47,685 bases of DNA, from IMG/VR virus record IMGVR_UViG_2513237200_000007; one strand, given 5' to 3'. Position numbers and translations under genes: made by a program. Below are positions 20,450 to 47,685 of this stretch, in pieces. The stretch's first letter is position 1. Every line of letters begins with the position of its first letter. The notes below the pieces were generated by a model. It ran no database searches. It had not been told where the DNA came from and saw only the letters and a list, made by a program, of their open reading frames with translations. Source of the stretch: a virus (Duplodnaviria; Heunggongvirae; Uroviricota; Caudoviricetes).

Positions 20450-21473
<1,024 letters not shown>

Positions 21474-23947: not shown

Positions 23948-23959
23948 GGGCGGCGACCT
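23948..23959 (+). other. cos: cos cohesive-end site (cosN 12-nt overhang GGGCGGCGACCT); cosB lies to the right
   Basis: Sequence ...CCGACAGGTTACG|GGGCGGCGACCT|CGCGGGTTTTCGCTATTTATGAAAATTTTCCGGTTTAAGGC matches the lambda cos junction, directly upstream of nu1. Confidence 0.85.
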
Positions 23960-24136
23960 CGCGGGTTTTCGCTATTTATGAAAATTTTCCGGTTTAAGGC
24001 ATTTCCGTTCTTCTTCGTCGTAACTTAATGTTTTTATTTAAAATACCCCCTGAAAAGAAAGGAAACGACAGGTGCTGAAAACGAGCTTTTGGGCCTCTGT
24101 CGTTTCCTTTCTCTGTTTTTGGCCGTGGAATGAACA

Positions 24137-24656: not shown

Positions 24657-24682
<26 letters not shown>
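24137..24682 (+). CDS. nu1: terminase small subunit Nu1
   Basis: 181 aa, MEVNKKQLADIFGASIRTIQNWQEQGMPVLRGGGKGNEVLYDSAAV..., near-identical to lambda Nu1 as recalled. Confidence 0.95.
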
Positions 24683-28363
<3,681 letters not shown>

Positions 28364-28383
<20 letters not shown>

Positions 28384-29683
28384 TCTCCCGCATATTGCCA
28401 GCATGGCTTTTAATGAGCCGCTGATGCTTGAACCCGCCTATGCGCGGGTTTTCTTTTGTGCGCTTGCAGGCCAGCTTGGGATCAGCCGCCTGACGGATGC
28501 GGTGTCCGGCGACAGCCTGACTGCCCAGGAGGCACTCGCGACGCTGGCATTATCCGGTGATGATGACGGACCACGACAGGCCCGCAGTTATCAGGTCATG
28601 AACGGCATCGCCGTGCTGCCGGTGTCCGGCACGCTGGTCAGCCGGACGCGGGCGCTGCAGCCGTACTCGGGGATGACCGGTTACAACGGCATTATCGCCC
28701 GTCTGCAACAGGCTGCCAGCGATCCGATGGTGGACGGCATTCTGCTCGATATGGACACGCCCGGCGGGATGGTGGCGGGGGCATTTGACTGCGCTGACAT
28801 CATCGCCCGTGTGCGTGACATAAAACCGGTATGGGCGCTGGCCAACGACATGAACTGCAGTGCAGGTCAGCTGCTTGCCAGTGCCGCCTCCCGGCGTCTG
28901 GTCACGCAGACCGCCCGGACAGGCTCCATCGGCGTCATGATGGCTCACAGTAATTACGGTGCTGCGCTGGAGAAACAGGGTGTGGAAATCACGCTGATTT
29001 ACAGCGGCAGCCATAAGGTGGATGGCAACCCCTACAGCCATCTTCCGGATGACGTCCGGGAGACACTGCAGTCCCGGATGGACGCAACCCGCCAGATGTT
29101 TGCGCAGAAGGTGTCGGCATATACCGGCCTGTCCGTGCAGGCTGTGCTGGATACCGAGGCTGCAGTGTACAGCGGTCAGGAGGCCATTGATGCCGGACTG
29201 GCTGATGAACTTGTTAACAGCACCGATGCGATCACCGTCATGCGTGATGCACTGGATGCACGTAAATCCCGTCTCTCAGGAGGGCGAATGACCAAAGAGA
29301 CTCAATCAACAACTGTTTCAGCCACTGCTTCGCAGGCTGACGTTACTGACGTGGTGCCAGCGACGGAGGGCGAAAACGCCAGCGCGGCGCAGCCGGACGT
29401 GAACGCGCAGATCACCGCAGCGGTTGCGGCAGAAAACAGCCGCATTATGGGGATCCTCAACTGTGAGGAGGCTCACGGACGCGAAGAACAGGCACGCGTG
29501 CTGGCAGAAACCCCCGGTATGACCGTGGAAACGGCCCGCCGCATTCTGGCCGCAGCACCACAGAGTGCACAGGCGCGCAGTGACACTGCGCTGGATCGTC
29601 TGATGCAGGGGGCACCGGCACCGCTGGCTGCAGGTAACCCGGCATCTGATGCCGTTAACGATTTGCTGAACACACCAGTGTAA
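28364..29683 (+). CDS. C: head maturation protease/scaffold C (GTG start)
   Basis: 439 aa from GTG 28364 (VTAELRNLPHIASMAF...), SD GAGGAGGAG upstream; overlaps B 3' end; track ORF starts earlier at a non-physiological upstream codon. Confidence 0.9.
29078..29683 (+). CDS. nu3: scaffold protein Nu3 (in-frame internal start within C)
   Basis: ATG at 29078 in the C frame (MDATRQMFAQKVSAYTG...), as for lambda Nu3 sharing the C stop. Confidence 0.7.
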   Translation: MDATRQMFAQKVSAYTGLSVQAVLDTEAAVYSGQEAIDAGLADELVNSTDAITVMRDALDARKSRLSGGRMTKETQSTTVSATASQADVTDVVPATEGENASAAQPDVNAQITAAVAAENSRIMGILNCEEAHGREEQARVLAETPGMTVETARRILAAAPQSAQARSDTALDRLMQGAPAPLAAGNPASDAVNDLLNTPV

Positions 29684-29692
29684 GGGATGTTT

Positions 29693-30025
29693 ATGACGAG
29701 CAAAGAAACCTTTACCCATTACCAGCCGCTGGGCAACAGTGACCCGGCTCATACCGCAACCGCGCCCGGCGGATTGAGTGCGAAAGCGCCTGCAATGACC
29801 CCGCTGATGCTGGACACCTCCAGCCGTAAGCTGGTTGCGTGGGATGGCACCACCGACGGTGCTGCCGTTGGCATTCTTGCGGTTGCTGCTGACCAGACCA
29901 GCACCACGCTGACGTTCTACAAGTCCGGCACGTTCCGTTATGAGGATGTGCTCTGGCCGGAGGCTGCCAGCGACGAGACGAAAAAACGGACCGCGTTTGC
30001 CGGAACGGCAATCAGCATCGTTTAA
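29693..30025 (+). CDS. D: head decoration protein D
   Basis: 110 aa from [41 protein letters not shown]... Confidence 0.95.
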
Positions 30026-30046
30026 CTTTACCCTTCATCACTAAAG

Positions 30047-30067
30047 GCCGCCTGTGCGGCTTTTTTT
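30047..30067 (+). terminator. hairpin plus T-run between D and E (attenuator-like)
   Basis: GCCGC-CTGT-GCGGC followed by TTTTTTT, just upstream of the E start. Confidence 0.4.
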
Positions 30068-30080
30068 ACGGGATTTTTTT

Positions 30081-31106
30081 ATGTCGATGTACACAACCGC
30101 CCAACTGCTGGCGGCAAATGAGCAGAAATTTAAGTTTGATCCGCTGTTTCTGCGTCTCTTTTTCCGTGAGAGCTATCCCTTCACCACGGAGAAAGTCTAT
30201 CTCTCACAAATTCCGGGACTGGTAAACATGGCGCTGTACGTTTCGCCGATTGTTTCCGGTGAGGTTATCCGTTCCCGTGGCGGCTCCACCTCTGAATTTA
30301 CGCCGGGATATGTCAAGCCGAAGCATGAAGTGAATCCGCAGATGACCCTGCGTCGCCTGCCGGATGAAGATCCGCAGAATCTGGCGGACCCGGCTTACCG
30401 CCGCCGTCGCATCATCATGCAGAACATGCGTGACGAAGAGCTGGCCATTGCTCAGGTCGAAGAGATGCAGGCAGTTTCTGCCGTGCTTAAGGGCAAATAC
30501 ACCATGACCGGTGAAGCCTTCGATCCGGTTGAGGTGGATATGGGCCGCAGTGAGGAGAATAACATCACGCAGTCCGGCGGCACGGAGTGGAGCAAGCGTG
30601 ACAAGTCCACGTATGACCCGACCGACGATATCGAAGCCTACGCGCTGAACGCCAGCGGTGTGGTGAATATCATCGTGTTCGATCCGAAAGGCTGGGCGCT
30701 GTTCCGTTCCTTCAAAGCCGTCAAGGAGAAGCTGGATACCCGTCGTGGCTCTAATTCCGAGCTGGAGACAGCGGTGAAAGACCTGGGCAAAGCGGTGTCC
30801 TATAAGGGGATGTATGGCGATGTGGCCATCGTCGTGTATTCCGGACAGTACGTGGAAAACGGCGTCAAAAAGAACTTCCTGCCGGACAACACGATGGTGC
30901 TGGGGAACACTCAGGCACGCGGTCTGCGCACCTATGGCTGCATTCAGGATGCGGACGCACAGCGCGAAGGCATTAACGCCTCTGCCCGTTACCCGAAAAA
31001 CTGGGTGACCACCGGCGATCCGGCGCGTGAGTTCACCATGATTCAGTCAGCACCGCTGATGCTGCTGGCTGACCCTGATGAGTTCGTGTCCGTACAACTG
31101 GCGTAA
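30081..31106 (+). CDS. E: major capsid protein E
   Basis: 341 aa from MSMYTTAQLLAANEQKFKFDPLFLRLFFRESYPF... Confidence 0.95.
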   Translation: MSMYTTAQLLAANEQKFKFDPLFLRLFFRESYPFTTEKVYLSQIPGLVNMALYVSPIVSGEVIRSRGGSTSEFTPGYVKPKHEVNPQMTLRRLPDEDPQNLADPAYRRRRIIMQNMRDEELAIAQVEEMQAVSAVLKGKYTMTGEAFDPVEVDMGRSEENNITQSGGTEWSKRDKSTYDPTDDIEAYALNASGVVNIIVFDPKGWALFRSFKAVKEKLDTRRGSNSELETAVKDLGKAVSYKGMYGDVAIVVYSGQYVENGVKKNFLPDNTMVLGNTQARGLRTYGCIQDADAQREGINASARYPKNWVTTGDPAREFTMIQSAPLMLLADPDEFVSVQLA

Positions 31107-31147
31107 TCATGGCCCTTCGGGGCCATTGTTTCTCTGTGGAGGAGTCC

Positions 31148-31546
31148 ATGACGAAAGATGAACTGATTGCCCGTCTCCGCTCGCTGGGTGAACAACTGAA
31201 CCGTAATGTCAGCCTGACGGGGACGAAAGAAGAACTGGCGCTCCGTGTGGCAGAGCTGGAAGAGGAGCTTGATGACACGGATGAAACTGCCGGTCAGGAC
31301 ACCCCTCTCAGCCGGGAAAATGTGCTGACCGGACATGAAAATGAGGTGGGATCAGCGCAGCCGGATACCGTGATTCTGGATACGTCTGAACTGGTCACGG
31401 TCGTGGCACTGGTGAAGCTGCATACTGATGCACTTCACGCCACGCGGGATGAACCTGTGGCATTTGTGCTGCCGGGAACGGCGTTTCGTGTCTCTGCCGG
31501 TGTGGCAGCCGAAATGACAGAGCGCGGCCTGGCCAGAATGCAATAA
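31148..31546 (+). CDS. FI: DNA packaging protein FI
   Basis: 132 aa from MTKDELIARLRSLGEQLNRNVSLTGTKEELALRVAELEEEL... Confidence 0.9.
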   Translation: MTKDELIARLRSLGEQLNRNVSLTGTKEELALRVAELEEELDDTDETAGQDTPLSRENVLTGHENEVGSAQPDTVILDTSELVTVVALVKLHTDALHATRDEPVAFVLPGTAFRVSAGVAAEMTERGLARMQ

Positions 31547-31557
31547 CGGGAGGCGCT

Positions 31558-31911
31558 GTGGCTGATTTCGATAACCTGTTCGATGCTGCCATTGCCCGCG
31601 CCGATGAAACGATACGCGGGTACATGGGAACGTCAGCCACCATGACATCCGGTGAGCAGTCAGGTGCGGTGATACGTGGTGTTTTTGATGACCCTGAAAA
31701 TATCAGCTATGCCGGACAGGGCGTGCGCGTTGAAGGCTCCAGCCCGTCCCTGTTTGTCCGGACTGATGAGGTGCGGCAGCTGCGGCGTGGAGACACGCTG
31801 ACCATCGGTGAGGAAAATTTCTGGGTAGATCGGGTTTCGCCGGATGATGGCGGAAGTTGTCATCTCTGGCTTGGACGGGGCGTACCGCCTGCCGTTAACC
31901 GTCGCCGCTGA
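31558..31911 (+). CDS. FII: head completion protein FII (GTG start)
   Basis: 117 aa, (M)ADFDNLFDAAIARADETIRGYMGTSATMTSGEQSG... Confidence 0.9.
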   Translation: MADFDNLFDAAIARADETIRGYMGTSATMTSGEQSGAVIRGVFDDPENISYAGQGVRVEGSSPSLFVRTDEVRQLRRGDTLTIGEENFWVDRVSPDDGGSCHLWLGRGVPPAVNRRR

Positions 31912-31922
31912 AAGGGGGATGT

Positions 31923-32501
31923 ATGGCCATAAAAGGTCTTGAGCAGGCCGTTGAAAACCTCAGCCGTATCAGCAGAACGGCGGTGCCTGGTGCCGCCGCA
32001 ATGGCCATTAACCGCGTTGCTTCATCCGCGATATCGCAGTCGGCGTCACAAGTTGCCCGTGAGACAAAGGTACGCCGGAAACTGGTAAAGGAAAGGGCCA
32101 GGCTGAAAAGGGCCACTGTCAAAAATCCGCAGGCCAGAATCAAAGTTAACCGGGGGGATTTGCCCGTAATCAAGCTGGGTAATGCGCGGGTTGTCCTTTC
32201 GCGCCGCAGGCGTCGTAAAAAGGGGCAGCGTTCATCCCTGAAAGGTGGCGGCAGCGTGCTTGTGGTGGGTAACCGTCGTATTCCCGGCGCGTTTATTCAG
32301 CAACTGAAAAATGGCCGGTGGCATGTCATGCAGCGTGTGGCCGGGAAAAACCGTTACCCCATTGATGTGGTGAAAATCCCGATGGCGGTGCCGCTGACCA
32401 CGGCGTTTAAACAAAATATTGAGCGGATACGGCGTGAACGTCTTCCGAAAGAGCTGGGCTATGCGCTGCAGCATCAACTGAGGATGGTAATAAAGCGATG
32501 A
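31923..32501 (+). CDS. Z: tail completion protein Z
   Basis: 192 aa lambda gpZ-like. Confidence 0.9.
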   Translation: MAIKGLEQAVENLSRISRTAVPGAAAMAINRVASSAISQSASQVARETKVRRKLVKERARLKRATVKNPQARIKVNRGDLPVIKLGNARVVLSRRRRRKKGQRSSLKGGGSVLVVGNRRIPGAFIQQLKNGRWHVMQRVAGKNRYPIDVVKIPMAVPLTTAFKQNIERIRRERLPKELGYALQHQLRMVIKR

Positions 32502-32893
32502 AACATACTGAACTCCGTGCAGCCGTACTGGATGCACTGGAGAAGCATGACACCGGGGCGACGTTTTTTGATGGTCGCCCCGCTGTTTTTGATGAGGCGG
32601 ATTTTCCGGCAGTTGCCGTTTATCTCACCGGCGCTGAATACACGGGCGAAGAGCTGGACAGCGATACCTGGCAGGCGGAGCTGCATATCGAAGTTTTCCT
32701 GCCTGCTCAGGTGCCGGATTCAGAGCTGGATGCGTGGATGGAGTCCCGGATTTATCCGGTGATGAGCGATATCCCGGCACTGTCAGATTTGATCACCAGT
32801 ATGGTGGCCAGCGGCTATGACTACCGGCGCGACGATGATGCGGGCCTGTGGAGTTCAGCCGATCTGACTTATGTCATTACCTATGAAATGTGA
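32498..32893 (+). CDS. U: tail terminator protein U
   Basis: 131 aa lambda gpU-like; overlaps Z stop. Confidence 0.9.
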
Positions 32894-32900
32894 GGACGCT

Positions 32901-33641
32901 ATGCCTGTACCAAATCCTACAATGCCGGTGAAAGGTGCCGGGACCACCCTGTGGGTTTATAAGGGGAGCGGTGACCCTTATGCGAATCCGCTTTCAGACG
33001 TTGACTGGTCGCGTCTGGCAAAAGTTAAAGACCTGACGCCCGGCGAACTGACCGCTGAGTCCTATGACGACAGCTATCTCGATGATGAAGATGCAGACTG
33101 GACTGCGACCGGGCAGGGGCAGAAATCTGCCGGAGATACCAGCTTCACGCTGGCGTGGATGCCCGGAGAGCAGGGGCAGCAGGCGCTGCTGGCGTGGTTT
33201 AATGAAGGCGATACCCGTGCCTATAAAATCCGCTTCCCGAACGGCACGGTCGATGTGTTCCGTGGCTGGGTCAGCAGTATCGGTAAGGCGGTGACGGCGA
33301 AGGAAGTGATCACCCGCACGGTGAAAGTCACCAATGTGGGACGTCCGTCGATGGCAGAAGATCGCAGCACGGTAACAGCGGCAACCGGCATGACCGTGAC
33401 GCCTGCCAGCACCTCGGTGGTGAAAGGGCAGAGCACCACGCTGACCGTGGCCTTCCAGCCGGAGGGCGTAACCGACAAGAGCTTTCGTGCGGTGTCTGCG
33501 GATAAAACAAAAGCCACCGTGTCGGTCAGTGGTATGACCATCACCGTGAACGGCGTTGCTGCAGGCAAGGTCAACATTCCGGTTGTATCCGGTAATGGTG
33601 AGTTTGCTGCGGTTGCAGAAATTACCGTCACCGCCAGTTAA
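32901..33641 (+). CDS. V: major tail tube protein V
   Basis: 246 aa from [30 protein letters not shown]...; C-terminal Ig-like domain. Confidence 0.95.
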
Positions 33642-33656
33642 TCCGGAGAGTCAGCG

Positions 33657-34079
33657 ATGTTCCTGAAAACCGAATCATTTGAACATAACGGTGTGACCGT
33701 CACGCTTTCTGAACTGTCAGCCCTGCAGCGCATTGAGCATCTCGCCCTGATGAAACGGCAGGCAGAACAGGCGGAGTCAGACAGCAACCGGAAGTTTACT
33801 GTGGAAGACGCCATCAGAACCGGCGCGTTTCTGGTGGCGATGTCCCTGTGGCATAACCATCCGCAGAAGACGCAGATGCCGTCCATGAATGAAGCCGTTA
33901 AACAGATTGAGCAGGAAGTGCTTACCACCTGGCCCACGGAGGCAATTTCTCATGCTGAAAACGTGGTGTACCGGCTGTCTGGTATGTATGAGTTTGTGGT
34001 GAATGATGCCCCTGAACAGGCAGAGGACGCCGGGCCTGCAGAGCCTGTTTCTGCGGGAAAGTGTTCGACGGTGAGCTGA
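33657..34079 (+). CDS. G: tail assembly chaperone G
   Basis: 140 aa, MFLKTESFEHNGVTVTLSELSALQRIEHLALMKRQ... Confidence 0.9.
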   Translation: MFLKTESFEHNGVTVTLSELSALQRIEHLALMKRQAEQAESDSNRKFTVEDAIRTGAFLVAMSLWHNHPQKTQMPSMNEAVKQIEQEVLTTWPTEAISHAENVVYRLSGMYEFVVNDAPEQAEDAGPAEPVSAGKCSTVS

Positions 34080-34495
34080 GTTTTGCCCTGAAACTGGCGC
34101 GCGAGATGGGGCGACCCGACTGGCGTGCCATGCTTGCCGGGATGTCATCCACGGAGTATGCCGACTGGCACCGCTTTTACAGTACCCATTATTTTCATGA
34201 TGTTCTGCTGGATATGCACTTTTCCGGGCTGACGTACACCGTGCTCAGCCTGTTTTTCAGCGATCCGGATATGCATCCGCTGGATTTCAGTCTGCTGAAC
34301 CGGCGCGAGGCTGACGAAGAGCCTGAAGATGATGTGCTGATGCAGAAAGCGGCAGGGCTTGCCGGAGGCGTTCGTTTTGGCCCGGACGGGAATGAAGTTA
34401 TCCCCGCTTCCCCGGATGTGGCGGACATGACGGAGGATGACGTAATGCTGATGACAGTATCAGAAGGGATCGCAGGAGGAGTCCGGTATGGCTGA
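33657..34495 (+). CDS. T: tail assembly chaperone G-T fusion via programmed -1 frameshift
   Basis: Slippery heptamer GGGAAAG at 34055-34061 near the end of G; the -1 frame (track ORF 34061-34495) continues to just after the H start. Confidence 0.75.
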
Positions 34496-37049
34496 ACCGG
34501 TAGGCGATCTGGTCGTTGATTTAAGTCTGGATGCGGCCAGATTTGACGAGCAGATGGCCAGAGTCAGGCGTCATTTTTCCGGTACGGAAACTGATGCGAA
34601 AAAAACAGCGGCAGTCGTTGAACAGTCGCTGAGCCGACAGGCGCTGGCTGCACAGAAAGCGGGGATTTCCGTCGGGCAGTATAAAGCCGCCATGCGTATG
34701 CTGCCTGCACAGTTCACCGACGTGGCCACGCAGCTTGCAGGCGGGCAAAGTCCGTGGCTGATCCTGCTGCAACAGGGTGGTCAGGTTAAGGACTCCTTCG
34801 GCGGGATGATCCCCATGTTCAGGGGGCTTGCCGGTGCGATCACCCTGCCGATGGTGGGGGCCACCTCGCTGGCGGTGGCGACCGGTGCGCTGGCGTATGC
34901 CTGGTATCAGGGCAACTCAACCCTGTCCGATTTCAACAAAACGCTGGTCCTTTCCGGCAATCAGGCGGGACTGACGGCAGATCGTATTCTGGCCCTGTCC
35001 AGAGCCGGGCAGGCGGCAGGGCTGACGTTTAACCAGACCAGCGAGTCACTCAGCGCACTGGTTAAGGCGGGGGTAAGCGGTGAGGCTCAGATTGCGTCCA
35101 TCAGCCAGAGTGTGGCGCGTTTCTCCTCTGCATCCGGCGTGGAGGTGGACAAGGTCGCTGAAGCCTTCGGGAAGCTGACCACAGACCCGACGTCGGGGCT
35201 GACGGCGATGGCACGCCAGTTCCATAACGTGACGGCGGAGCAGATTGCGTATGTTGCTCAGTTGCAGCGTTCCGGCGATGAAGCCGGGGCATTGCAGGCG
35301 GCGAACGAGGCCGCAACGAAAGGGTTTGATGACCAGACCCGCCGCCTGAAAGAGAACATGGGCACGCTGGAGACCTGGGCAGACAGGACAGCACGGGCAT
35401 TCAAATCCATGTGGGATGCGGTGCTGGATATTGGTCGTCCTGATACCGCGCAGGAGATGCTGATTAAGGCAGAGGCTGCGTTTAAGAAAGCAGACGACAT
35501 CTGGAATCTGCGCAAGGATGATTATTTTGTTAACGATGAAGCGCGGGCGCGTTACTGGGATGATCGTGAAAAGGCCCGTCTTGCGCTTGAAGCCGCCCGA
35601 AAGAAGGCTGAGCAGCAGACTCAACAGGACAAAAATGCGCAGCAGCAGAGCGATACCGAAGCGTCACGGCTGAAATATACCGAAGAGGCGCAGAAGGCTT
35701 ACGAACGGCTGCAGACGCCGCTGGAGAAATATACCGCCCGTCAGGAAGAACTGAACAAGGCACTGAAAGACGGGAAAATCCTGCAGGCGGATTACAACAC
35801 GCTGATGGCGGCGGCGAAAAAGGATTATGAAGCGACGCTGAAAAAGCCGAAACAGTCCGGCGTGAAGGTGTCTGCGGGCGATCGTCAGGAAGACAGTGCT
35901 CATGCTGCCCTGCTGACGCTTCAGGCAGAACTCCGGACGCTGGAGAAGCATGCCGGAGCAAATGAGAAAATCAGCCAGCAGCGCCGGGATTTGTGGAAGG
36001 CGGAGAGTCAGTTCGCGGTACTGGAGGAGGCGGCGCAACGTCGCCAGCTGTCTGCACAGGAGAAATCCCTGCTGGCGCATAAAGATGAGACGCTGGAGTA
36101 CAAACGCCAGCTGGCTGCACTTGGCGACAAGGTTACGTATCAGGAGCGCCTGAACGCGCTGGCGCAGCAGGCGGATAAATTCGCACAGCAGCAACGGGCA
36201 AAACGGGCCGCCATTGATGCGAAAAGCCGGGGGCTGACTGACCGGCAGGCAGAACGGGAAGCCACGGAACAGCGCCTGAAGGAACAGTATGGCGATAATC
36301 CGCTGGCGCTGAATAACGTCATGTCAGAGCAGAAAAAGACCTGGGCGGCTGAAGACCAGCTTCGCGGGAACTGGATGGCAGGCCTGAAGTCCGGCTGGAG
36401 TGAGTGGGAAGAGAGCGCCACGGACAGTATGTCGCAGGTAAAAAGTGCAGCCACGCAGACCTTTGATGGTATTGCACAGAATATGGCGGCGATGCTGACC
36501 GGCAGTGAGCAGAACTGGCGCAGCTTCACCCGTTCCGTGCTGTCCATGATGACAGAAATTCTGCTTAAGCAGGCAATGGTGGGGATTGTCGGGAGTATCG
36601 GCAGCGCCATTGGCGGGGCTGTTGGTGGCGGCGCATCCGCGTCAGGCGGTACAGCCATTCAGGCCGCTGCGGCGAAATTCCATTTTGCAACCGGAGGATT
36701 TACGGGAACCGGCGGCAAATATGAGCCAGCGGGGATTGTTCACCGTGGTGAGTTTGTCTTCACGAAGGAGGCAACCAGCCGGATTGGCGTGGGGAATCTT
36801 TACCGGCTGATGCGCGGCTATGCCACCGGCGGTTATGTCGGTACACCGGGCAGCATGGCAGACAGCCGGTCGCAGGCGTCCGGGACGTTTGAGCAGAATA
36901 ACCATGTGGTGATTAACAACGACGGCACGAACGGGCAGATAGGTCCGGCTGCTCTGAAGGCGGTGTATGACATGGCCCGCAAGGGTGCCCGTGATGAAAT
37001 TCAGACACAGATGCGTGATGGTGGCCTGTTCTCCGGAGGTGGACGATGA
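34488..37049 (+). CDS. H: tail tape-measure protein H
   Basis: 853 aa lambda gpH-like; extended coiled-coil region. Confidence 0.95.
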   Translation: MAEPVGDLVVDLSLDAARFDEQMARVRRHFSGTETDAKKTAAVVEQSLSRQALAAQKAGISVGQYKAAMRMLPAQFTDVATQLAGGQSPWLILLQQGGQVKDSFGGMIPMFRGLAGAITLPMVGATSLAVATGALAYAWYQGNSTLSDFNKTLVLSGNQAGLTADRILALSRAGQAAGLTFNQTSESLSALVKAGVSGEAQIASISQSVARFSSASGVEVDKVAEAFGKLTTDPTSGLTAMARQFHNVTAEQIAYVAQLQRSGDEAGALQAANEAATKGFDDQTRRLKENMGTLETWADRTARAFKSMWDAVLDIGRPDTAQEMLIKAEAAFKKADDIWNLRKDDYFVNDEARARYWDDREKARLALEAARKKAEQQTQQDKNAQQQSDTEASRLKYTEEAQKAYERLQTPLEKYTARQEELNKALKDGKILQADYNTLMAAAKKDYEATLKKPKQSGVKVSAGDRQEDSAHAALLTLQAELRTLEKHAGANEKISQQRRDLWKAESQFAVLEEAAQRRQLSAQEKSLLAHKDETLEYKRQLAALGDKVTYQERLNALAQQADKFAQQQRAKRAAIDAKSRGLTDRQAEREATEQRLKEQYGDNPLALNNVMSEQKKTWAAEDQLRGNWMAGLKSGWSEWEESATDSMSQVKSAATQTFDGIAQNMAAMLTGSEQNWRSFTRSVLSMMTEILLKQAMVGIVGSIGSAIGGAVGGGASASGGTAIQAAAAKFHFATGGFTGTGGKYEPAGIVHRGEFVFTKEATSRIGVGNLYRLMRGYATGGYVGTPGSMADSRSQASGTFEQNNHVVINNDGTNGQIGPAALKAVYDMARKGARDEIQTQMRDGGLFSGGGR

Positions 37050-37375
37050 AGACCTTCCGCTGGAAAGTGAAACCCGGTATGGATGTGGCTTCGATCCCTT
37101 CTGTAAGAAAGGTGCGCTTTGGTGATGGCTATTCTCAGCGAGCGCCTGCCGGGCTGAATGCCAACCTGAAAACGTACAGCGTGACGCTTTCTGTCCCCCG
37201 TGAGGAGGCCACGGTACTGGAGTCGTTTCTGGAAGAGCACGGGGGCTGGAAATCCTTTCTGTGGACGCCGCCTTATGAGTGGCGGCAGATAAAGGTGACC
37301 TGCGCAAAATGGTCGTCGCGGGTCAGTATGCTGCGTGTTGAGTTCAGCGCAGAGTTTGAACAGGTGGTGAACTGA
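37046..37375 (+). CDS. M: tail tip protein M
   Basis: 109 aa; ATGA overlap with H. Confidence 0.9.
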   Translation: MKTFRWKVKPGMDVASIPSVRKVRFGDGYSQRAPAGLNANLKTYSVTLSVPREEATVLESFLEEHGGWKSFLWTPPYEWRQIKVTCAKWSSRVSMLRVEFSAEFEQVVN

Positions 37376-38073
37376 TGCAGGATATCCGGCAGGAAACACT
37401 GAATGAATGCACCCGTGCGGAGCAGTCGGCCAGCGTGGTGCTCTGGGAAATCGACCTGACAGAGGTCGGTGGAGAACGTTATTTTTTCTGTAATGAGCAG
37501 AACGAAAAAGGTGAGCCGGTCACCTGGCAGGGGCGACAGTATCAGCCGTATCCCATTCAGGGGAGTGGTTTTGAACTGAATGGCAAAGGCACCAGTACGC
37601 GCCCCACACTGACGGTTTCTAACCTGTACGGTATGGTCACCGGGATGGCGGAAGATCTGCAGAGTCTGGTCGGTGGAACGGTGGTCCGGCGTAAGGTTTA
37701 CGCCCGTTTTCTGGATGCGGTGAACTTCGTCAACGGAAACAGTGGCGCCGATCCGGAGCAGGAGGTGATCAGCCGCTGGCGCATTGAGCAGTGCAGCGAA
37801 CTGAGCGCGGTGAGTGCCTCTTTTGTACTGTCCACGCCGACGGAAACGGACGGTGCTGTTTTTCCGGGACGTATCATGCTGGCCAACACCTGCACCTGGA
37901 CCTATCGCGGTGATGAGTGCGGTTATCACGGTCCGGCAGTCGCGGATGAATATGACCAGCCAACGTCCGATATCACGAAGGATAAATGCAGCAAATGCCT
38001 GAGCGGTTGTAAGTTCCGCAATAACGTCGGCAACTTTGGCGGCTTCCTTTCCATTAACAAACTTTCGCAGTAA
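37375..38073 (+). CDS. L: tail tip protein L
   Basis: 232 aa lambda gpL-like with C-terminal Cys cluster. Confidence 0.9.
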   Translation: MQDIRQETLNECTRAEQSASVVLWEIDLTEVGGERYFFCNEQNEKGEPVTWQGRQYQPYPIQGSGFELNGKGTSTRPTLTVSNLYGMVTGMAEDLQSLVGGTVVRRKVYARFLDAVNFVNGNSGADPEQEVISRWRIEQCSELSAVSASFVLSTPTETDGAVFPGRIMLANTCTWTYRGDECGYHGPAVADEYDQPTSDITKDKCSKCLSGCKFRNNVGNFGGFLSINKLSQ

Positions 38074-38078
38074 ATCCC

Positions 38079-38822
38079 ATGACACAGACAGAATCAGCGA
38101 TTCTGGCGCACGCCCGGCGATGTGCGCCAGCGGAGTCGTGCGGCTTCGTGGTAAGCACGCCGGAGGGGGAAAGATATTTTCCCGGCGTGAATATTTCCGG
38201 TGAGCCGGAGGATTATTTCCGGATGGCTCCGGAGGACTGGCTGCAGGCAGAAATGCAGGGTGAGATTGTGGCGCTGGTCCACAGCCACCCCGGTGGTCTG
38301 CCCTGGCTGAGTGAGGCTGACCGGCGGCTGCAGGTGCAGAGTGATTTGCCGTGGTGGCTGGTCTGCCGGGGGGCGATTCATAAGTTCCGCTGTGTGCCGC
38401 ATCTCACCGGGCGGCGCTTTGAGCACGGGGTGACGGACTGTTACACGCTGTTCCGGGATGCTTATCATCTGGCGGGGATTGAGATGCCGGATTTTCATCG
38501 CGGGGATGACTGGTGGCGTCACGGTCAGAATCTCTATCTGGATAATCTGGAGGCCACAGGGCTGTATCAGGTGCCGTTGTCAGCGGCGCAGCCGGGCGAT
38601 GTGCTGCTGTGCTGTTTTGGTTCATCGGTGCCGAATCATGCCGCCATTTACTGTGGTGATGGCGAGCTGCTGCACCATATTCCTGAACAACTGAGCAAAC
38701 GAGAGAGGTACACCGACAAATGGCAGCGACGCACACACTCCCTCTGGCGTCACCGGGCATGGCGCGCATCTGCCTTTACGGGGATTTACAACGATTTGGT
38801 CGCCGCATCGACCTTCGTGTGA
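38079..38822 (+). CDS. K: tail tip assembly protein K (JAB/MPN and NlpC/P60-like motifs)
   Basis: 247-aa ORF; HSHPGG JAMM-like motif and downstream Cys/His peptidase-like region; 3' end overlaps I. The true start could be internal. Confidence 0.85.
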   Translation: MTQTESAILAHARRCAPAESCGFVVSTPEGERYFPGVNISGEPEDYFRMAPEDWLQAEMQGEIVALVHSHPGGLPWLSEADRRLQVQSDLPWWLVCRGAIHKFRCVPHLTGRRFEHGVTDCYTLFRDAYHLAGIEMPDFHRGDDWWRHGQNLYLDNLEATGLYQVPLSAAQPGDVLLCCFGSSVPNHAAIYCGDGELLHHIPEQLSKRERYTDKWQRRTHSLWRHRAWRASAFTGIYNDLVAASTFV

Positions 38823-39391
38823 AAACGGGGGCTGAAGCCATCCGGGCACTGGCCACACAGCTCCCGGCGTTTCGTCAGAAACTGAGCGACGGCTGGTATC
38901 AGGTACGGATTGCCGGGCGGGACGTCAGCACGTCCGGGTTAACGGCGCAGTTACATGAGACTCTGCCTGATGGCGCTGTGATTCATATTGTTCCCAGAGT
39001 CGCCGGGGCCAAGTCAGGTGGCGTATTCCAGATTGTCCTGGGGGCTGCCGCCATTGCCGGATCATTCTTTACCGCCGGAGCCACCCTTGCAGCATGGGGG
39101 GCAGCCATTGGGGCCGGTGGTATGACCGGCATCCTGTTTTCTCTCGGTGCCAGTATGGTGCTCGGTGGTGTGGCGCAGATGCTGGCACCGAAAGCCAGAA
39201 CTCCCCGTACACAGACAACGGATAACGGTAAGCAGAACACCTATTTCTCCTCACTGGATAACATGGTTGCCCAGGGCAATGTTCTGCCTGTTCTGTACGG
39301 GGAAATGCGCGTGGGGTCACGCGTGGTTTCTCAGGAGATCAGCACGGCAGACGAAGGGGACGGTGGTCAGGTTGTGGTGATTGGTCGCTGA
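38720..39391 (+). CDS. I: tail tip assembly protein I
   Basis: 223 aa with ubiquitin-like N-terminus and Gly/Ala-rich hydrophobic C-terminal region; lambda gpI-like. Confidence 0.9.
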   Translation: MAATHTLPLASPGMARICLYGDLQRFGRRIDLRVKTGAEAIRALATQLPAFRQKLSDGWYQVRIAGRDVSTSGLTAQLHETLPDGAVIHIVPRVAGAKSGGVFQIVLGAAAIAGSFFTAGATLAAWGAAIGAGGMTGILFSLGASMVLGGVAQMLAPKARTPRTQTTDNGKQNTYFSSLDNMVAQGNVLPVLYGEMRVGSRVVSQEISTADEGDGGQVVVIGR

Positions 39392-39410
39392 TGCAAAATG
39401 TTTTATGTGA

Positions 39411-39431
39411 AACCGCCTGCGGGCGGTTTTG
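39411..39431 (+). terminator. hairpin plus T-run between I and J
   Basis: AACCGCC-TGCG-GGCGGTT followed by TT. Confidence 0.4.
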
Positions 39432-39451
39432 TCATTTATGGAGCGTGAGGA

Positions 39452-42400
39452 ATGAGTAAAGGAAGCAGTAAGGGGCATACCCCGCGCGAAGCGAAGGACA
39501 ACCTGAAGTCCACGCAGTTGCTGAGTGTGATCGATGCCATCAGCGAAGGGCCGGTTGAAGGTCCGGTGGATGGATTAAAAAGCGTGCTGCTGAACAGTAC
39601 GCCGGTGCTGGACACTGAGGGGAATACCAACATCTCCGGTGTCACGGTGGTGTTCCGTGCCGGTGAGCAGGAGCAGACACCGCCGGAGGGGTTTGAATCC
39701 TCCGGCTCCGAGACGGTGTTGGGTACGGAAGTGAAATACGACACGCCGATCACCCGCGCCATCACGTCGGCAAACATCGACCGACTGCGCTTTACCTTCG
39801 GTGTGCAGGCACTGGTGGAAACCACCTCAAAGGGGGACCGGAATCCGTCGGAAGTTCGCCTGCTGGTTCAGATACAGCGTAATGGTGGCTGGGTGACGGA
39901 AAAAGATATCACCATTAAGGGCAAAACCACCTCGCAGTATCTGGCCTCGGTGGTGGTGGATAACCTGCCGCCGCGCCCGTTTAATATCCGGATGCGCAGA
40001 ATGACGCCGGACAGCACCACAGACCAGCTGCAGAACAAAACGCTCTGGTCGTCATACACCGAAATCATCGATGTGAAACAGTGCTACCCGAACACGGCAC
40101 AGGTCGGCGTGCAGGTGGATTCGGAGCAGTTCGGCAGCCAGCAGGTGAGCCGTAATTATCATCTTCGCGGGCGCATTCTGCAGGTGCCGTCGAATTATAA
40201 CCCGCAGACGCGGCAATACAGCGGTATCTGGGACGGAACGTTAAAACCGGCATACAGCAACAACATGGCCTGGTGTCTGTGGGATATGCTGACCCACCCG
40301 CGCTACGGCATGGGGAAACGTCTTGGTGCGGCAGATGTGGATAAATGGGCGCTGTATGTCATCGGCCAGAATTGCGACCAGTCGGTGCCGGACGGCTTTG
40401 GCGGTACGGAGCCGCGCATCACCTGTAACGCTTACCTGACCACACAACGTAAGGCGTGGGATGTGCTCAGTGATTTCTGCTCGGCGATGCGCTGTATGCC
40501 GGTATGGAACGGGCAGACGCTGACGTTCGTGCAGGACCGACCGTCGGATAAGGTGTGGACCTATAACCGCAGTAATGTGGTGATGCCGGATGATGGCGCG
40601 CCGTTCCGCTACAGCTTCAGCGCCCTGAAAGACCGCCATAATGCCGTTGAGGTGAACTGGATTGACCCGGATAACGGCTGGGAGACGGCAACAGAGCTTG
40701 TGGAGGACTCGCAGGCCATTGCCCGTTACGGTCGTAACGTCACGAAGATGGATGCCTTTGGCTGTACCAGCCGGGGGCAGGCACACCGCGCCGGGCTGTG
40801 GCTGATTAAAACGGAGCTGCTGGAAACGCAGACGGTGGACTTCAGCGTGGGTGCCGAAGGGCTTCGCCATGTGCCGGGCGATGTCATTGAAATCTGTGAT
40901 GATGACTATGCCGGTATCAGCACCGGCGGGCGCGTGCTGGCGGTAAACAGTCAGACCCGGACGCTGACGCTCGACCGTGAAATCACGCTGCCATCCTCCG
41001 GTACCACGCTGATAAGCCTGGTTGACGGAAGTGGCAATCCGGTCAGCGTGGAGGTTCAGTCCGTCACCGACGGCGTGAAGGTGAAAGTGAGCCGGGTTCC
41101 TGACGGCGTTGCTGAATACAGCGTGTGGGGGCTGAAGCTGCCGACGCTGCGCCAGCGCCTGTTCCGCTGCGTGAGTATCCGTGAGAACGACGACGGCACG
41201 TATGCCATCACCGCCGTGCAGCATGTACCGGAAAAAGAAGCCATCGTGGATAACGGGGCGCACTTTGACGGCGACCAGAGCGGCACGGTGAATGGTGTCA
41301 CGCCGCCAGCGGTGCAGCACCTGACTGCCGAAGTCACCGCAGACAGTGGGGAATACCAGGTGCTGGCCCGCTGGGACACGCCGAAGGTGGTGAAGGGCGT
41401 GAGTTTCATGCTTCGCCTGACCGTGGCAGCGGATGACGGCAGTGAGCGGCTGGTCAGCACGGCCCGGACGGCGGAAACCACATACCGCTTCACGCAACTG
41501 GCGCCAGGGAACTACAGGCTGACAGTCCGGGCGGTAAATGCGTGGGGGCAGCAGGGCGATCCGGCGTCGGTATCGTTCCGGATTGCCGCACCGGCAGCAC
41601 CGTCGAGGATTGAGCTGACGCCGGGCTATTTTCAGATAACCGCCACGCCGCATCTTGCCGTTTATGACCCGACGGTACAGTTTGAGTTCTGGTTCTCGGA
41701 AAAGCGGATTACCGATATCAGGCAGGTTGAAACCACAGCCCGCTATCTTGGTACGGCGCTGTACTGGATAGCCGCCAGTATCAATATCAAACCGGGCCAT
41801 GATTATTACTTTTATATCCGCAGTGTGAACACCGTTGGCAAATCGGCATTCGTGGAGGCCGTCGGTCGGGCGAGCGATGATGCGGAAGGTTACCTGGATT
41901 TTTTCAAAGGCAAGATAACCGAATCCCATCTCGGTAAAGAGCTGCTGGAAAAAGTTGATCTGACGGAGGATAACGCCAGCAGACTGGATGAGTTTTCGAA
42001 AGAGTGGAAGGACGCTAACGATAAATGGAATGCCATGTGGGGCGTCAAAATTGAGCAGACCAAAGACGGCAAACATTATGTCGCGGGTATTGGCCTCAGC
42101 ATGGAGGACACGGAGGAAGGCAAGCTGAGCCAGTTTCTGGTTGCCGCTAACCGTATCGCGTTTATTGACCCGGCAAACGGGAATGAAACGCCGATGTTTG
42201 TGGCGCAGGGCAACCAGATATTCATGAACGACGTGTTCCTGAAGCGCCTGACAGCCCCCACCATTACCAGCGGTGGCAGCCCTCCGGTATTTTCCCTGAC
42301 ATCAGACGGAAAGCTGACCGCTAAAAATGCGGATATCAGTGGTAGTGTGAATGCGAACTCAGGAACGCTCAACAATGTCACGATTAACCAGAACTGTACG

Positions 42401-42865
42401 ATTAAGGGCATGCTGGAGGCGACTCAGGTCAGAGGTGACTTCGTTAAAGCTGTATCCAAATCATTTCCGAAACAGGCTGGTACGTGGGGTAACACGGAAA
42501 CACCAAACGGGACGGTTACAGTCACCATCAGCGATGATCATAACTTTGACCGTCAAATCATTATTCCGCCCATTATCTTTAACGGAATAGCGTATAGCGA
42601 TCCGGGAAGTGGTAATAACCCGGGAGGTACAAGATACACGGGTTATGGTTTTGAAGTTCGCAAAAACGGTGTATTAATCGCATCCAGAGAAACTAAAGGG
42701 GCCATTCCCGGTAGCTACAGTGCGGTTATTGATATGCCGAGTGGCAGGGGAAGCGTCACTCTGGAGTTTAAGGTTTTCCATAAAGGCAATCAGCGGGCAG
42801 GTAATATCACCGACTGTACGGTGATTGTGACCAAAAAAGCGGCTTCAGGCATCAGTATTCGTTGA
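39452..42865 (+). CDS. J: central tail fibre / host specificity protein J with divergent C-terminal receptor-binding domain
   Basis: 1137 aa; most of the protein is lambda gpJ-like (fibronectin-III-like repeats), but the last roughly 150 aa differ from lambda J as recalled. Confidence 0.95.
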
Positions 42866-42887
42866 AATATTTATAACCCCAATAAAT

Positions 42888-42912
42888 GGCGTCAGGAATG
42901 ACGCCTTTTTTA
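42888..42912 (+). terminator. rho-independent terminator after J
   Basis: GGCGTCA-GGAA-TGACGCC followed by TTTTTTATT. Confidence 0.6.
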
Positions 42913-42935
42913 TTGCAGAAAAGCGAGAGGTAATT

Positions 42936-43535
42936 ATGCGTAAAGTTTGTGCCGCCATTTTGTCCGCAGCCATTTGTCTGGCCGTATCCGGTGCGCCTGC
43001 ATGGGCGTCTGAACATCAGTCCACGCTGAGCGCGGGGTATCTTCATGCCCGGACCAACGTTCCCGGCAGTGATGATCTGAACGGGATTAACGTGAAATAC
43101 CGTTATGAGTTTACGGATACGCTGGGGCTGGTGACGTCATTCAGCTATGCAGGAGACAAGAATCGCCAGTTGACCCATTACAGCGATACCCGCTGGCATG
43201 AAGATTCCGTTCGTAACCGCTGGTTCAGCGTAATGGCGGGGCCGTCTGTGCGCGTGAATGAATGGTTCAGCGCGTATGCGATGGCGGGTGTGGCTTACAG
43301 CCGTGTGTCGACTTTCTCCGGGGATTATCTCCGCGTAACTGACAACAAGGGGAAAACGCACGACGTGCTGACCGGAAGTGATGACGGTCGCCACAGCAAC
43401 ACGTCTCTGGTGTGGGGAGCTGGCGTGCAGTTTAACCCGACCGAATCCGTGGCCATTGATATTGCTTATGAAGGCTCCGGCAGTGGCGACTGGCGCACTG
43501 ACGGTTTCATCGTGGGTGTCGGTTATAAGTTCTGA
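42936..43535 (+). CDS. lom: Lom/Ail-family outer-membrane beta-barrel protein
   Basis: 199 aa with signal peptide (MRKVCAAILSAAICLAVSGAPAWA), alternating beta-strand pattern and C-terminal aromatic (YKF). Confidence 0.85.
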   Translation: MRKVCAAILSAAICLAVSGAPAWASEHQSTLSAGYLHARTNVPGSDDLNGINVKYRYEFTDTLGLVTSFSYAGDKNRQLTHYSDTRWHEDSVRNRWFSVMAGPSVRVNEWFSAYAMAGVAYSRVSTFSGDYLRVTDNKGKTHDVLTGSDDGRHSNTSLVWGAGVQFNPTESVAIDIAYEGSGSGDWRTDGFIVGVGYKF

Positions 43536-43562
43536 TTAGCCAGGTAACACAGTGTTATGACA

Positions 43563-43588
43563 GCCCGCCGGTTCAGGCGGGCTTTTTT
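43563..43588 (+). terminator. rho-independent terminator after lom
   Basis: GCCCGCC-GGTTCA-GGCGGGC followed by TTTTTT. Confidence 0.6.
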
Positions 43589-43599
43589 GTGGGGTGAAT

Positions 43600-46500
43600 A
43601 TGGCAGTAAAGATTTCAGGTGTACTGAAAGACGGCACAGGAAAACCGGTACAGAACTGCACAATCCAGCTGAAAGCAAAACGTAACAGCACCACGGTGGT
43701 GGTGAACACGCTGGCCTCAGAAAATCCGGATGAAGCCGGGCGTTACAGCATGGACGTTGAGTACGGTCAGTACAGCGTTATTCTGTTGGTGGAAGGATTC
43801 CCGCCGTCACATGCCGGGACCATCACCGTGTATGAAGATTCCCGACCCGGTACGCTGAATGATTTTCTCGGTGCCATGACGGAGGATGATGCCCGTCCGG
43901 AGGCTCTGCGCCGTTTTGAACTGATGGTGGAAGAGGTGGCGCGTAACGCGTCCGCGGTGGCACAGAACACGGCAGCCGCGAAGAAGTCAGCCAGTGATGC
44001 CGGCACATCTGCCAGTGAGGCGGCAACCCATGCGACTGATGCTGCAGGCTCAGCGCGTGCAGCCAGCACGTCAGCCGGACAGGCCGCGACGTCGGCTCAG
44101 GAGGCGTCTTCCAGCGCAGGAACGGCATCAACAAAGGCCACTGAAGCATCAAAAAGTGCTGCCGCTGCAGAGTCCTCAAAAAGCGCGGCGGCCACCAGTG
44201 CCGGTGCCGCGAAAACGTCAGAAACGAATGCTGCAGCGTCACAAAAATCAGCAGCCACTTCTGCATCCACTGCGACGACGAAAGCGTCAGAAGCCGCCAC
44301 TTCAGCCCGGGATGCGGCGGCCTCAAAAGAGGCAGCGAAATCATCAGAAACGAACGCATCATCAAGCGCCAGTAGTGCCGCTTCCTCGGCAACGGCGGCA
44401 GCAAATTCTGCGAAGGCGGCAAAAACGTCCGAGACGAACGCCAGGTCTTCTGAAACGGCAGCGGAACAGAGCGCCTCAGCTGCGGCAGACTCTGAGACAA
44501 CAGCTGCATCATCGGCCCGTGAGGCGTCCATTAAGGCAGAGGAGGCAGCAGTCAGTGCCACCGCCGCCGGAAAATCGGCAGAAAGCGCCGCATCATCCGC
44601 TTCAACAGCCACAACGAAGGCTGGCGAAGCCACTGAACAGGCCAGCGCAGCAGTGAGGTCTGCTTCCGCAGCGAAGACATCCGAAACGAACGCGAAAGCG
44701 TCGGAAACCAGCGCAGAATCCTCAAAAACGGCTGCCGCATCGTCCGCCAGTTCGGCGGCGTCATCGGCATCATCGGCGTCTGCTTCAAAAGATGAGGCGA
44801 CCAGACAGGCGTCAGCAGCGAGGGGCAGCGCCACGACGGCATCCACGAAGGCGACAGAGGCTGCTGGCAGTGCGGCAGCGGCAGCACAGAGCAAAAGTAC
44901 GGCAGAATCCGCAGCAACGCGCGCCGAGACAGCAGCAAAACGGGCAGAGGATATTGCATCCGCCGTGGCGCTTGAGGATGCGAGCACGACGAAAAAGGGG
45001 ATAGTACAGCTCAGTAGTGCGACTAACAGCACTTCCGAGTCACTGGCGGCAACACCAAAAGCCGTTAAGGCCGCGTATGACCTGGCTAACGGGAAATACA
45101 CCGCACAGGATGCAACGACAGCACAGAAAGGGATAATCCAGCTAAGCAGCGCGACCAACAGCACGTCTGAAACGCTTGCCGCGACACCAAAGGCAGTAAA
45201 AGCAGCCAATGACAATGCTGAGAAACGTCTGCAGAAAGATCAGAACGGTGCGGATATCCCTGGCAAAGATACCTTTACGAAAAATATTGGTGCCTGCCGT
45301 GCCTTCGGTGGGTCAGTAAGCACAACAACAGGAAACTGGACGACTGCACAGTTTATCGAGTGGCTGGATTCTCAGGGAGCATTTAACCATCCATACTGGA
45401 TGTGCAAGGGTTCCTGGTCTTATGGCAATAATAAAATCATTACTGATACTGACTGCGGTAATATTCATCTCGCCGGAGCTGTCATTGAAGTAATGGGGAT
45501 AAAGTCAGCGATGACGATCCGCATTACCACACCGACCACCTCCACTGGTGGTGGAACAACTAACGCCCAGTTTACCTATATTAATCACGGAACAGATTAT
45601 TCACCTGGCTGGCGAAGGGACTATAACTCCAGAAATAAGCCAACGGCATCAGAGATCGGGGCGTTACCGTCAGGTGGAACAGCAGTATCATCAGTTAATC
45701 TGGCTTCAAAAGGTCGGGTAACCGCGCTGACAGACAATACGCAGGGGGCAGCAGGTCTTGAGTTATACGAGGTGTATAACAACGGATATCCAACAGCGTA
45801 TGGAAATATCATTCACCTGAAAGGGATGACAGCCGTTGGCGAAGGTGAGTTACTCATCGGCTGGAGTGGTACAAGCGGTGCTCATGCTCCGGCATTTATT
45901 CGTTCACGACGGGATACGACCGACGCAAACTGGTCGCCGTGGGCGCAGCTTTACACCTCGGCTCATCCTCCTGCAGAGTTTTATCCAGTCGGTGCACCAA
46001 TCCCGTGGCCATCAGATACCGTTCCGTCTGGTTATGCCCTGATGCAGGGGCAGACTTTTGACAAATCTGCATACCCGAAACTTGCAGTTGCTTATCCGTC
46101 AGGCGTGATCCCTGATATGCGTGGCTGGACGATTAAGGGCAAGCCCGCCAGTGGTCGGGCCGTATTATCTCAGGAACAGGACGGCATTAAATCGCACACC
46201 CACAGCGCCAGCGCATCCAGTACGGATTTGGGGACGAAAACCACATCGTCGTTTGATTACGGAACCAAATCCACGAATAACACCGGGGCGCATACCCATA
46301 GTATTAGCGGGACCGCAAATAGTGCCGGTGCGCACCAACACAAGAGTTCCGGTGCATTTGGTGGCACGAACACGAGCATTTTCCCTAATGGTTATACCGC
46401 GATTTCAAATCTAAGCGCGGGGATTATGAGCACAACAAGCGGTAGTGGCCAGACTCGTAATGCAGGGAAGACATCATCAGATGGTGCTCATACCCACTCG

Positions 46501-46674
46501 CTGTCCGGCACTGCTGCAAGCGCAGGCGCGCATGCACATACTGTCGGTATTGGTGCTCATACGCACTCCGTTGCGATTGGTTCACATGGACACACCATCA
46601 CCGTTAACGCTGCTGGTAACGCGGAAAACACCGTCAAAAACATCGCATTTAACTATATTGTGAGGCTTGCATAA
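43600..46674 (+). CDS. stf: side tail fibre protein Stf
   Basis: About 1024 aa from [26 protein letters not shown] (lambda stf-like N-terminus); long Ala/Ser/Thr-rich repetitive shaft; two tandem copies of KKGI(V/I)[11 protein letters not shown](S/T)[11 protein letters not shown]; His-rich C-terminal region. Confidence 0.9.
43970..44990 (+). repeat. low-complexity Ala/Ser/Thr/Lys/Glu-rich repetitive coding region within stf
   Basis: Recurrent motifs ([21 protein letters not shown]) at protein and DNA level; long spurious antisense ORFs arise here. Confidence 0.6.
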
Positions 46675-47249
46675 TGGCATTCAGAATGAGTGAACAACCA
46701 CGGACCATAAAAATTTATAATCTGCTGGCCGGAACTAATGAATTTATTGGTGAAGGTGATGCATATATTCCGCCTCATACAGGTCTGCCAGCAAACAGTA
46801 CCGATATTGCACCGCCAGATATTCCGGCTGGCTTCGTGGCTGTTTTCAACAGTGATGAGTCATCGTGGCATCTCGTTGAAGATCATCGGGGTAAAACGGT
46901 TTATGACGTGGCTTCCGGCGACGCGTTATTTATTTCTGAACTCGGTCCGTTACCGGAAAATGTTACCTGGTTATCGCCGGAAGGGGAGTTTCAGAAGTGG
47001 AACGGCACAGCCTGGGTGAAGGATACGGAAGCAGAAAAACTGTTCCGGATCCGGGAGGCGGAAGAAACAAAAAACAACCTGATGCAGGTAGCCAGTGAGC
47101 ATATTGCGCCGCTTCAGGATGCTGCAGATCTGGAAATTGCAACGGAGGAAGAAATCTCGTTGCTGGAAGCATGGAAAAAGTATCGGGTATTGCTGAACCG
47201 TGTTGATACGTCAACTGCACAGGATATTGAATGGCCAGCACTGCCGTAG
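46674..47249 (+). CDS. tfa: tail fibre assembly protein Tfa
   Basis: 191 aa, [78 protein letters not shown]...; start overlaps stf stop (TAATG). Confidence 0.9.
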
Positions 47250-47346
47250 GGTAAAACATATAAATTCTATAATTAGATGTATCTTTCCATTTACGGCAAG
47301 GAAGGGGGCTTGGAAGACGTAAAGCATCTCACACCGAGATTATTTT

Positions 47347-47685
47347 TTATATGTCAGGTGTCTGAAGTTTTGCTTTGGCTCTTAAAATGGTTTGCCGCGA
47401 GGTTTTGAATTCCCGGGCAATGGCACTTATACTTACACCTGACTTAATTCGTTCGAATACCGCCTGTTTCTGTTCTTCATTTAACACAGGTGGTCGACCA
47501 AAACGTTTCCCTGCGCCGCGGGCTCTTACTATCCCGGAATGAGTGCGTTCAAGTAAAAGGTCTCGTTCAAATTCAGCGACTGCTGAAATTACTTGCATCA
47601 TCATTTTTCCTGTTGGACTGGTCAGGTCAATGCCCCCCAATGCTAAGCAATGCACTCTGATACCTGTTTCGGTCAGTTGTTCCAC
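47347..47685 (-). CDS. pin: Pin/Gin/Hin-family serine DNA invertase, C-terminal part (N-terminus beyond window end)
   Basis: C-terminal HTH region [44 protein letters not shown] and resolvase-domain residues ([35 protein letters not shown]); ORF runs to the window edge. Confidence 0.8.

Follow-up and report, generated by a model that had tools for sequence, protein, structure and literature searches.

The final part of gene J, which encodes the tail tip attachment (central tail fibre) protein, was examined in a 47,685-nucleotide (nt) stretch of tailed-phage DNA (IMG/VR record IMGVR_UViG_2513237200_000007; this whole stretch is hereafter called the window), and its last approximately 150 amino acids (aa) are the receptor-binding domain (RBD) allele of phage 434, known as 'h434'. 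Judged from the allele that it resembles, the receptor of this domain is most likely OmpC and not LamB. Taken as a whole, we regard it as probable that a 434-type RBD is carried on a lambda-like tail, that its docking to OmpC would trigger opening of the tail, and that the cassette encoding it could be exchanged by recombination in its flanks. The h434 host-range allele, with its specificity for OmpC, belongs to textbook lambda genetics; the feature is thus already known, being a known allele of a known domain, and the same J gene is already annotated as gpJ in Escherichia coli W.

The end of J is the phage 434 allele

The initial annotation, made from the sequence alone, had interpreted the end of J as an exchanged host-range determinant, and comparison with phage 434 (OL657226) bears this out in that the last 152 aa form a discrete allele. 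The J proteins of the window and of phage 434 are both 1137 aa long and 97.7% identical overall, and over aa 986-1137 they agree at 146 of the 152 residues (96.1%). When the RBD was compared by tblastn with 50,697 phage records, 74 of them showed at least 90% identity and 168 showed less than 60% (36-49% among those listed), with none between, so that both high identity over the whole RBD and separation from the other classes place the window RBD in the 434-type class. Because the alleles are distributed bimodally in this way, the divergence does not reflect chance or drift. The six substitutions that separate the two RBDs (window residue, position, 434 residue) are S1004A, Q1008K, A1009V, N1019D, S1049D, and R1099G. 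At the codon level, the RBDs differ by 25 synonymous and 6 non-synonymous changes, with a proportion of synonymous differences (pS) of 0.27 and a ratio of non-synonymous to synonymous proportions (pN/pS) of 0.08, versus a pS of 0.14 and a pN/pS of 0.06 in the rest of J. Considering the higher pS of the RBD together with its low pN/pS, the cassette is an older lineage that has evolved under purifying selection.

Upstream of this domain the window follows lambda closely. Positions 23948-42421 are collinear with lambda 1-18474 at 98.43% nt identity, after which the alignment breaks and picks up at 43408, near the end of lom, and protein identity to lambda is 98-100% for each of Nu1, A, W, B, C, D, E, FI, FII, Z, U, V, G, H, M, L, K, and I, in agreement with the near-identity previously suggested for Nu1 to I. 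Identity to lambda J (NC_001416) is 96.6% in aa 1-985 and falls to 36.1% in aa 986-1137, which confirms the proposed divergence of the last approximately 150 aa; in bins of 50 aa it stays at 96-100% up to aa 950 and drops to 76, 42, 30, and 35% in the last four. In bins of 60 nt, identity to lambda is 0.92 at 42280-42339, 0.80 at 42340-42399, and 0.55 at 42400-42459. The divergent region had been placed at 42300-42865 in the initial annotation; its end is correct, whereas divergence begins 80-120 nt later than given there, at approximately 42380-42421. Both peptides cited for this region are present in the translation of the open reading frame (ORF) at 39452-42865. The description of the tail module as otherwise lambda-identical holds up to J and fails downstream, where lom is 45-46% identical to lambda, stf is mosaic, and tfa is 95% identical.

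Family and position assign the gene to J. The match to NCBIfam NF049904 (lambda_TipJ) is full-length (residues 1-1137; 2281 bits, cut-off 1950), and the Pfam domains FNIII-A_GpJ, Phage-tail_3, Ig_J, Ig_J_second, Phage_Tail_Tip, and Ig_GpJ_C, each scoring far above its cut-off, follow one another in the order of lambda gpJ (hub/FNIII-A, Phage-tail_3, two immunoglobulin (Ig) domains, tail-tip fibre, and C-terminal Ig RBD). The gene lies after M-L-K-I and before lom-stf-tfa, as located by tblastn of lambda proteins (37046-47246) and in agreement with the annotation of E. coli W.

It could be argued that the divergent end of J is the product of ordinary drift among LamB-binding alleles and that LamB is still used, given that the domain family and fold are those of lambda and that the framework strands and the C-terminal tail (...KK.A.GIS.., kept in window J, lambda, and A8, an OmpC-binding allele) are conserved. 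However, the pairwise alignment does not place the C-terminus within the normal variation of LamB-binding alleles. Identity to the LamB-binding lambda RBD (J aa 986-1132) is 36.1% (36.3% by tblastn against lambda records), with insertions or deletions at four places in the loops (window aa approximately 1011-1012, 1046-1051, 1086, and 1109-1120); no intermediates occur among the 242 matching phage records; and the nearest characterised allele, that of 434, belongs to a reported OmpC user. Moreover, the remainder of J keeps 96.6% identity to lambda, and the break is therefore a recombination boundary and not the outcome of gradual divergence. We consider persistence of LamB binding through drift extremely unlikely.

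Receptor and predicted mode of action

OmpC has been reported as the receptor of phage 434, and lambda switches from LamB to OmpC when it is given the 434 tail fibre gene (PMC11101478, PMC3509688; also PMC12502783). Since the window RBD is nearly the 434 allele, whose receptor in the literature is OmpC, we infer OmpC for window J, and the earlier suggestion of a receptor other than LamB gains in this way a most likely candidate. Grafting of the natural J C-terminal domains A8 and 1A2 onto lambda J sufficed to retarget particles from LamB to OmpC (PMC11338833). In the hybrid lambda h434 imm21 (OM418627; PMC9119081), which was compared up to record position 21300, the last lambda-type diagnostic site is at position 17619, and from 17637 to 21300 all such sites are 434-type; the crossover falls at approximately J aa 705-711, and the rest of J, lom, the 434 stf, and the chaperone gene are all 434-type. 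This places the h434 host-range allele in distal J or downstream of it.

A literature search found no phage that combines the window allele with a measured receptor. The enterohaemorrhagic E. coli phage phi330 (PMC12502783) has been tested, but it carries another allele, whose RBD, according to the authors of that study, has 35-40% identity to those of 434 and lambda. A8 and 1A2 were also rejected as carriers of the window allele: no window DNA strings matched in the supplement of PMC11338833, and the sequences printed there are other alleles. The available passages of a study using the PhiR phages (PMC13190303) describe tests of ManYZ dependence and report no receptor tests.

An AlphaFold2 model of aa 960-1137 (mean predicted local distance difference test score (pLDDT) 70.7) shows an all-beta domain with 13 strands and no helices, in which pLDDT is mostly 72-95 except in a weak loop (model residues 94-99) and at the disordered ends. 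The top four PDB matches of this model in Foldseek are 8xck, 9wca, 9wcb, and 8xcj (E-values 2e-14 to 1e-13; query-normalised template modelling scores 0.65-0.67), that is, lambda gpJ, closed and with bound LamB, and A8 gpJ, closed and with bound OmpC, in accordance with the Ig_GpJ_C fold. J would trimerise, its three Ig-like C-terminal domains forming the tip of the central fibre, and the distal loops of the RBD trimer would dock onto or insert into a trimeric outer-membrane porin, most likely OmpC. Binding would then spread the base of the domain trimer and twist the beta-prism fibre, after which the helical shaft would be released or flip and the tail tip would open for DNA ejection. The opening sequence, from the spreading of the base through the twisting of the beta-prism and the release of the shaft to the opening of the tip, has been described for lambda gpJ with LamB (PMC11101478), and from those lambda structures we infer, by analogy, a similar mechanism for window J.

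Several points weigh against OmpC-triggered opening through a 434-type RBD. The structure model is that of a monomer and derives from a shallow alignment of nine sequences, because the RBD query retrieved mainly truncated or fused gene calls of very little diversity in the homologous-protein search, and its loops are readable as secondary structure only. The h434 hybrid also carries the 434 lom, stf, and tfa and by itself does not single out the RBD as the determinant. All six substitutions relative to 434 occur at sites that vary elsewhere in the class, most of them in or beside predicted inter-strand loops. Phage 21 gains the use of OmpC beside LamB by a single J mutation and that of OmpF by a few more (PMC11336670), and receptor range can therefore shift through a few changes in the loops. 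Finally, an insertion sequence (IS) lies, in PhiR42_1 coordinates, between Q and the lysis genes or holin and might impair late expression, including that of J; the window copy of J may consequently never come into use.

An alternative is a 434-class domain whose specificity had been shifted by the six loop substitutions, so that it would accept only certain OmpC variants or would use another porin, for example OmpF, in addition to or instead of OmpC. Within the 434 class, replacements concentrate at 1004, 1008/1009, 1019, 1049/1050, 1097-1101, and 1108-1115, a small number of positions that mostly border or lie within the predicted loops between strands. Of these, 1008-1019, 1049-1050, and 1108-1115 are in or within a few residues of three of the four sites of insertion or deletion between alleles, and 1097-1101 are not. 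In addition, A8 and 1A2, two other OmpC-binding alleles, have been reported to accept markedly different subsets of 23 natural OmpC variants (PMC11338833), and the phage 21 results point the same way. Nevertheless, the 96% identity and the pN/pS of 0.08 argue for conserved function, and V1108, H1110, and R1115 are common to the window and 434, at positions where I, Q, and G prevail in the rest of the class. In addition, the listed host of phi458, whose RBD is identical, is K-12 MC1061, and that of PhiR26_1, mEp332, and PhiR11_1 is MG1655, which fits the K-12 host range of 434. A shifted specificity is hence unlikely in our view, and we give equally little credence to the related idea that variation at 1004, 1008/1009, 1019, 1049, and 1099, together with that at 1097-1115, tunes the RBD to natural OmpC variants and is non-neutral. 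If this were true, the 434-class cassettes, which ~38% of E. coli genomes carry, would amount to a graduated series of keys, each fitted to particular strains, and the allele of E. coli W would have a host range measurably unlike that of 434 or would use a second porin.

Boundaries, exchange, and distribution of the cassette

The cassette proper, as delimited by alignment, spans approximately 42422-42846, with sharp boundaries between conserved flanks (Table 1). Its 5' boundary is set by 42421, the last base of the lambda alignment. At the 3' side, the block without alignment to lambda extends past J through most of lom, to 43407, but phages with other RBD alleles resume their match at query position 404-425 of 42422-43407, which corresponds to window 42825-42846. 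The lom type of the window (with identities of 45.4% to the lambda protein and 96.0% to that of 434) is found behind many different RBD alleles and is common among lambdoid and Stx phages, with lambda lom as the outlier; the cassette proper is therefore limited to the RBD. Movement of the RBD and lom as one unit was ruled out, given that the same lom stands behind many RBD alleles and that a few 434-type RBDs (ev207, PhiR11_1) have other downstream sequence. Considering that conserved sequence is present on both sides, homologous recombination could move the cassette as a unit: crossovers in the upstream fibre sequence and in the downstream J tail, terminator, and lom would shuttle it between lambdoid phages, with the conserved 3' end of J as the likely downstream anchor.

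Table 1. Positions of J, its parts, and neighbouring features in the window
Feature	Position	Strand	Details
Gene J (tail tip attachment / central tail fibre protein), intact	39452..42865	+	3,414-nt ORF, 1137 aa
Lambda-like J body (hub domains, FNIII/Ig domains, helical shaft, beta-prism fibre)	39452..42421	+	aa 1 to ~990; within the 98.43% nt lambda alignment
Second exchangeable J segment (shaft / upper fibre)	41949..42186	+	~aa 806-930; lambda-like in the window; blastn gap versus PhiR42_1
434-type RBD cassette, divergent region	42422..42846	+	~aa 991-1132, 425 nt
Pfam PF12421 Ig_GpJ_C ('Tip attachment protein J, C-terminal receptor binding domain')	42452..42859	+	aa 1001-1136; E = 1.3e-25, 90.5 bits, cut-off 26.2
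Conserved J 3' end (...ASGISIR + stop), common to RBD alleles	42847..42865	+	Records with unrelated RBD alleles align onward from here
Intrinsic-terminator-like hairpin and T-run between J and lom	42888..42913	+	Stem 42888-42905, then TTTTTTATTG
lom (Ail/Lom outer-membrane protein), non-lambda allele	42936..43535	+	Pfam Ail_Lom, E = 4.9e-123
stf, intact	43594-46674		1026 aa; mosaic versus lambda: 85% at N-terminus, ~70% at C-terminus (orf-314)
tfa	46674-47249		191 aa; 95% identical to lambda Tfa
PinQ-type serine recombinase gene (window ends inside)	47347-47685	-	Beside tfa
Insertion sequence, 1,329 bp	18229-19557		Absent from PhiR42_1; 402-aa IS4-family transposase ORF 18242-19450, minus strand

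The 425-nt cassette, counted as present at a coverage of at least 80%, was detected in 2,090 of the 5,426 complete E. coli genomes (~38%). The equivalent lambda cassette occurs in 98 of these genomes, in all cases at an identity of at least 99%, and the five listed are laboratory strains (DE3 lysogens and K-12 derivatives). Approximately twenty times more frequent than that of lambda, the 434-type cassette is thus the usual allele in nature, and the lambda allele is the unusual one. Among phages, the RBD is 100% identical in phi458, 99.3% in IdasGreatGrand and many Stx2c- and Stx1a-converting phages, and 97.4% in Evi and 2B8. PhiR42_1, PhiR26_1, and phi458, which belong to the same allele class, were deposited as phage genomes with named propagation hosts, indicating that near-identical tails are viable. 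One genome record, NZ_CP026085.1, labelled 'Escherichia coli strain DH5alpha', has the window J segment at 100% identity; the segment is unexpected in a K-12 derivative, and the record may be mislabelled.

Exchange within J also concerns the shaft. PhiR42_1 and many relatives with a J of 3498 nt have an alternative shaft segment, 28 aa longer and ~50% identical, and keep the same 434-type RBD. Compared with that of PhiR42_1, window J has a protein identity of 0.56 and 0.46 in aa 801-900 and of 0.92-1.0 in the RBD, and the relatives with the 3498-nt span match window J in two pieces with 93% coverage.

Prophage setting and comparison with known phages

Positions 34300-47685 of the window are 100% identical to the chromosome of E. 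coli W, where the prophage adjoins a truncated ydfJ, with pinQ, tfaQ, ydfK, and ynfT nearby, a location that we take to be the site of the defective prophage Qin in K-12. The nearest deposited phage is PhiR42_1 (PV340562), with 99.9% identity over the early region. The 1,329-bp element at 18229-19557 lies between the Q and lysis-gene positions of PhiR42_1; copies at an identity of at least 99% occur in 2,833 plasmid records, and its ends resemble those of IS10. Both the IS4-family insertion and the Qin-like location could indicate that J is a relic in a defective prophage and that the RBD has no current function in the host strain. However, no head or tail gene from Nu1 to tfa, J included, is disrupted, and their products show 98-100% identity to functional proteins of lambda (lom, stf, and tfa being lower), the RBD is under purifying selection, and this explanation concerns the use of the domain in the host strain and not its role. 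We regard it as improbable.

The side tail fibre gene of the window is whole, whereas that of the lambda reference is split into orf-401 and orf-314, and residues ~100-500 of its product consist to 59-75% of Ala, Ser, and Thr. A search between stf and the recombinase gene for inverted repeats, which would support a tail-fibre segment inverted by a pinQ-type recombinase, gave no convincing candidates. The Stf of Ur-lambda has been reported to bind OmpC (PMC12617516, PMC11338833), and it is conceivable by analogy that J and Stf of the window phage might both target OmpC.

As a discovery the feature matters little, exchange of the J C-terminal domain having already been used to retarget lambda particles. 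The frequency of the cassette, its sharp boundaries, and its few variable positions could inform the selection of natural RBDs when delivery vectors are engineered and could help to predict the host range of prophages.

With regard to known systems, phage 434 (OL657226) resembles the window phage not only in its RBD but also in its Lom, which is 96% identical, and in a terminator annotated at the equivalent place between J and lom. It differs in the side fibre, with a 1314-nt stf and a 270-nt chaperone gene versus the 1026-aa Stf of lambda/Qin type and the 191-aa Tfa of the window, as well as in the early region and the integration site. The phages phi458, IdasGreatGrand, Evi, 2B8, PhiR42_1, mEp460, and cdtI and the Stx2c and Stx1a phages have RBDs of the same class (at least 90% identity) and usually the same lom type; however, they carry other early regions and cargo (Stx, Cdt), and some have a J that is 28 aa longer. 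The A8 chimera (PDB 9wca/9wcb; Brodel et al. 2024, PMC11338833) also carries a natural J C-terminal domain with the fold of the window RBD (Foldseek E-value ~3e-14), but A8 is another allele, with 41.6% identity, and has only the fold in common with it; chimera 1A2, whose sequence is in the supplement of PMC11338833, is another allele as well. Lambda gpJ (PDB 8xcj/8xck; PMC11101478) shares with window J the protein family, the domain order, the Ig-like fold, and a body that is 96.6% identical, and is the best structural match of the RBD model, so that the opening mechanism is presumably common to both. The two proteins differ in the RBD, which is 36% identical with four places of insertion or deletion, and the receptor of lambda is LamB.

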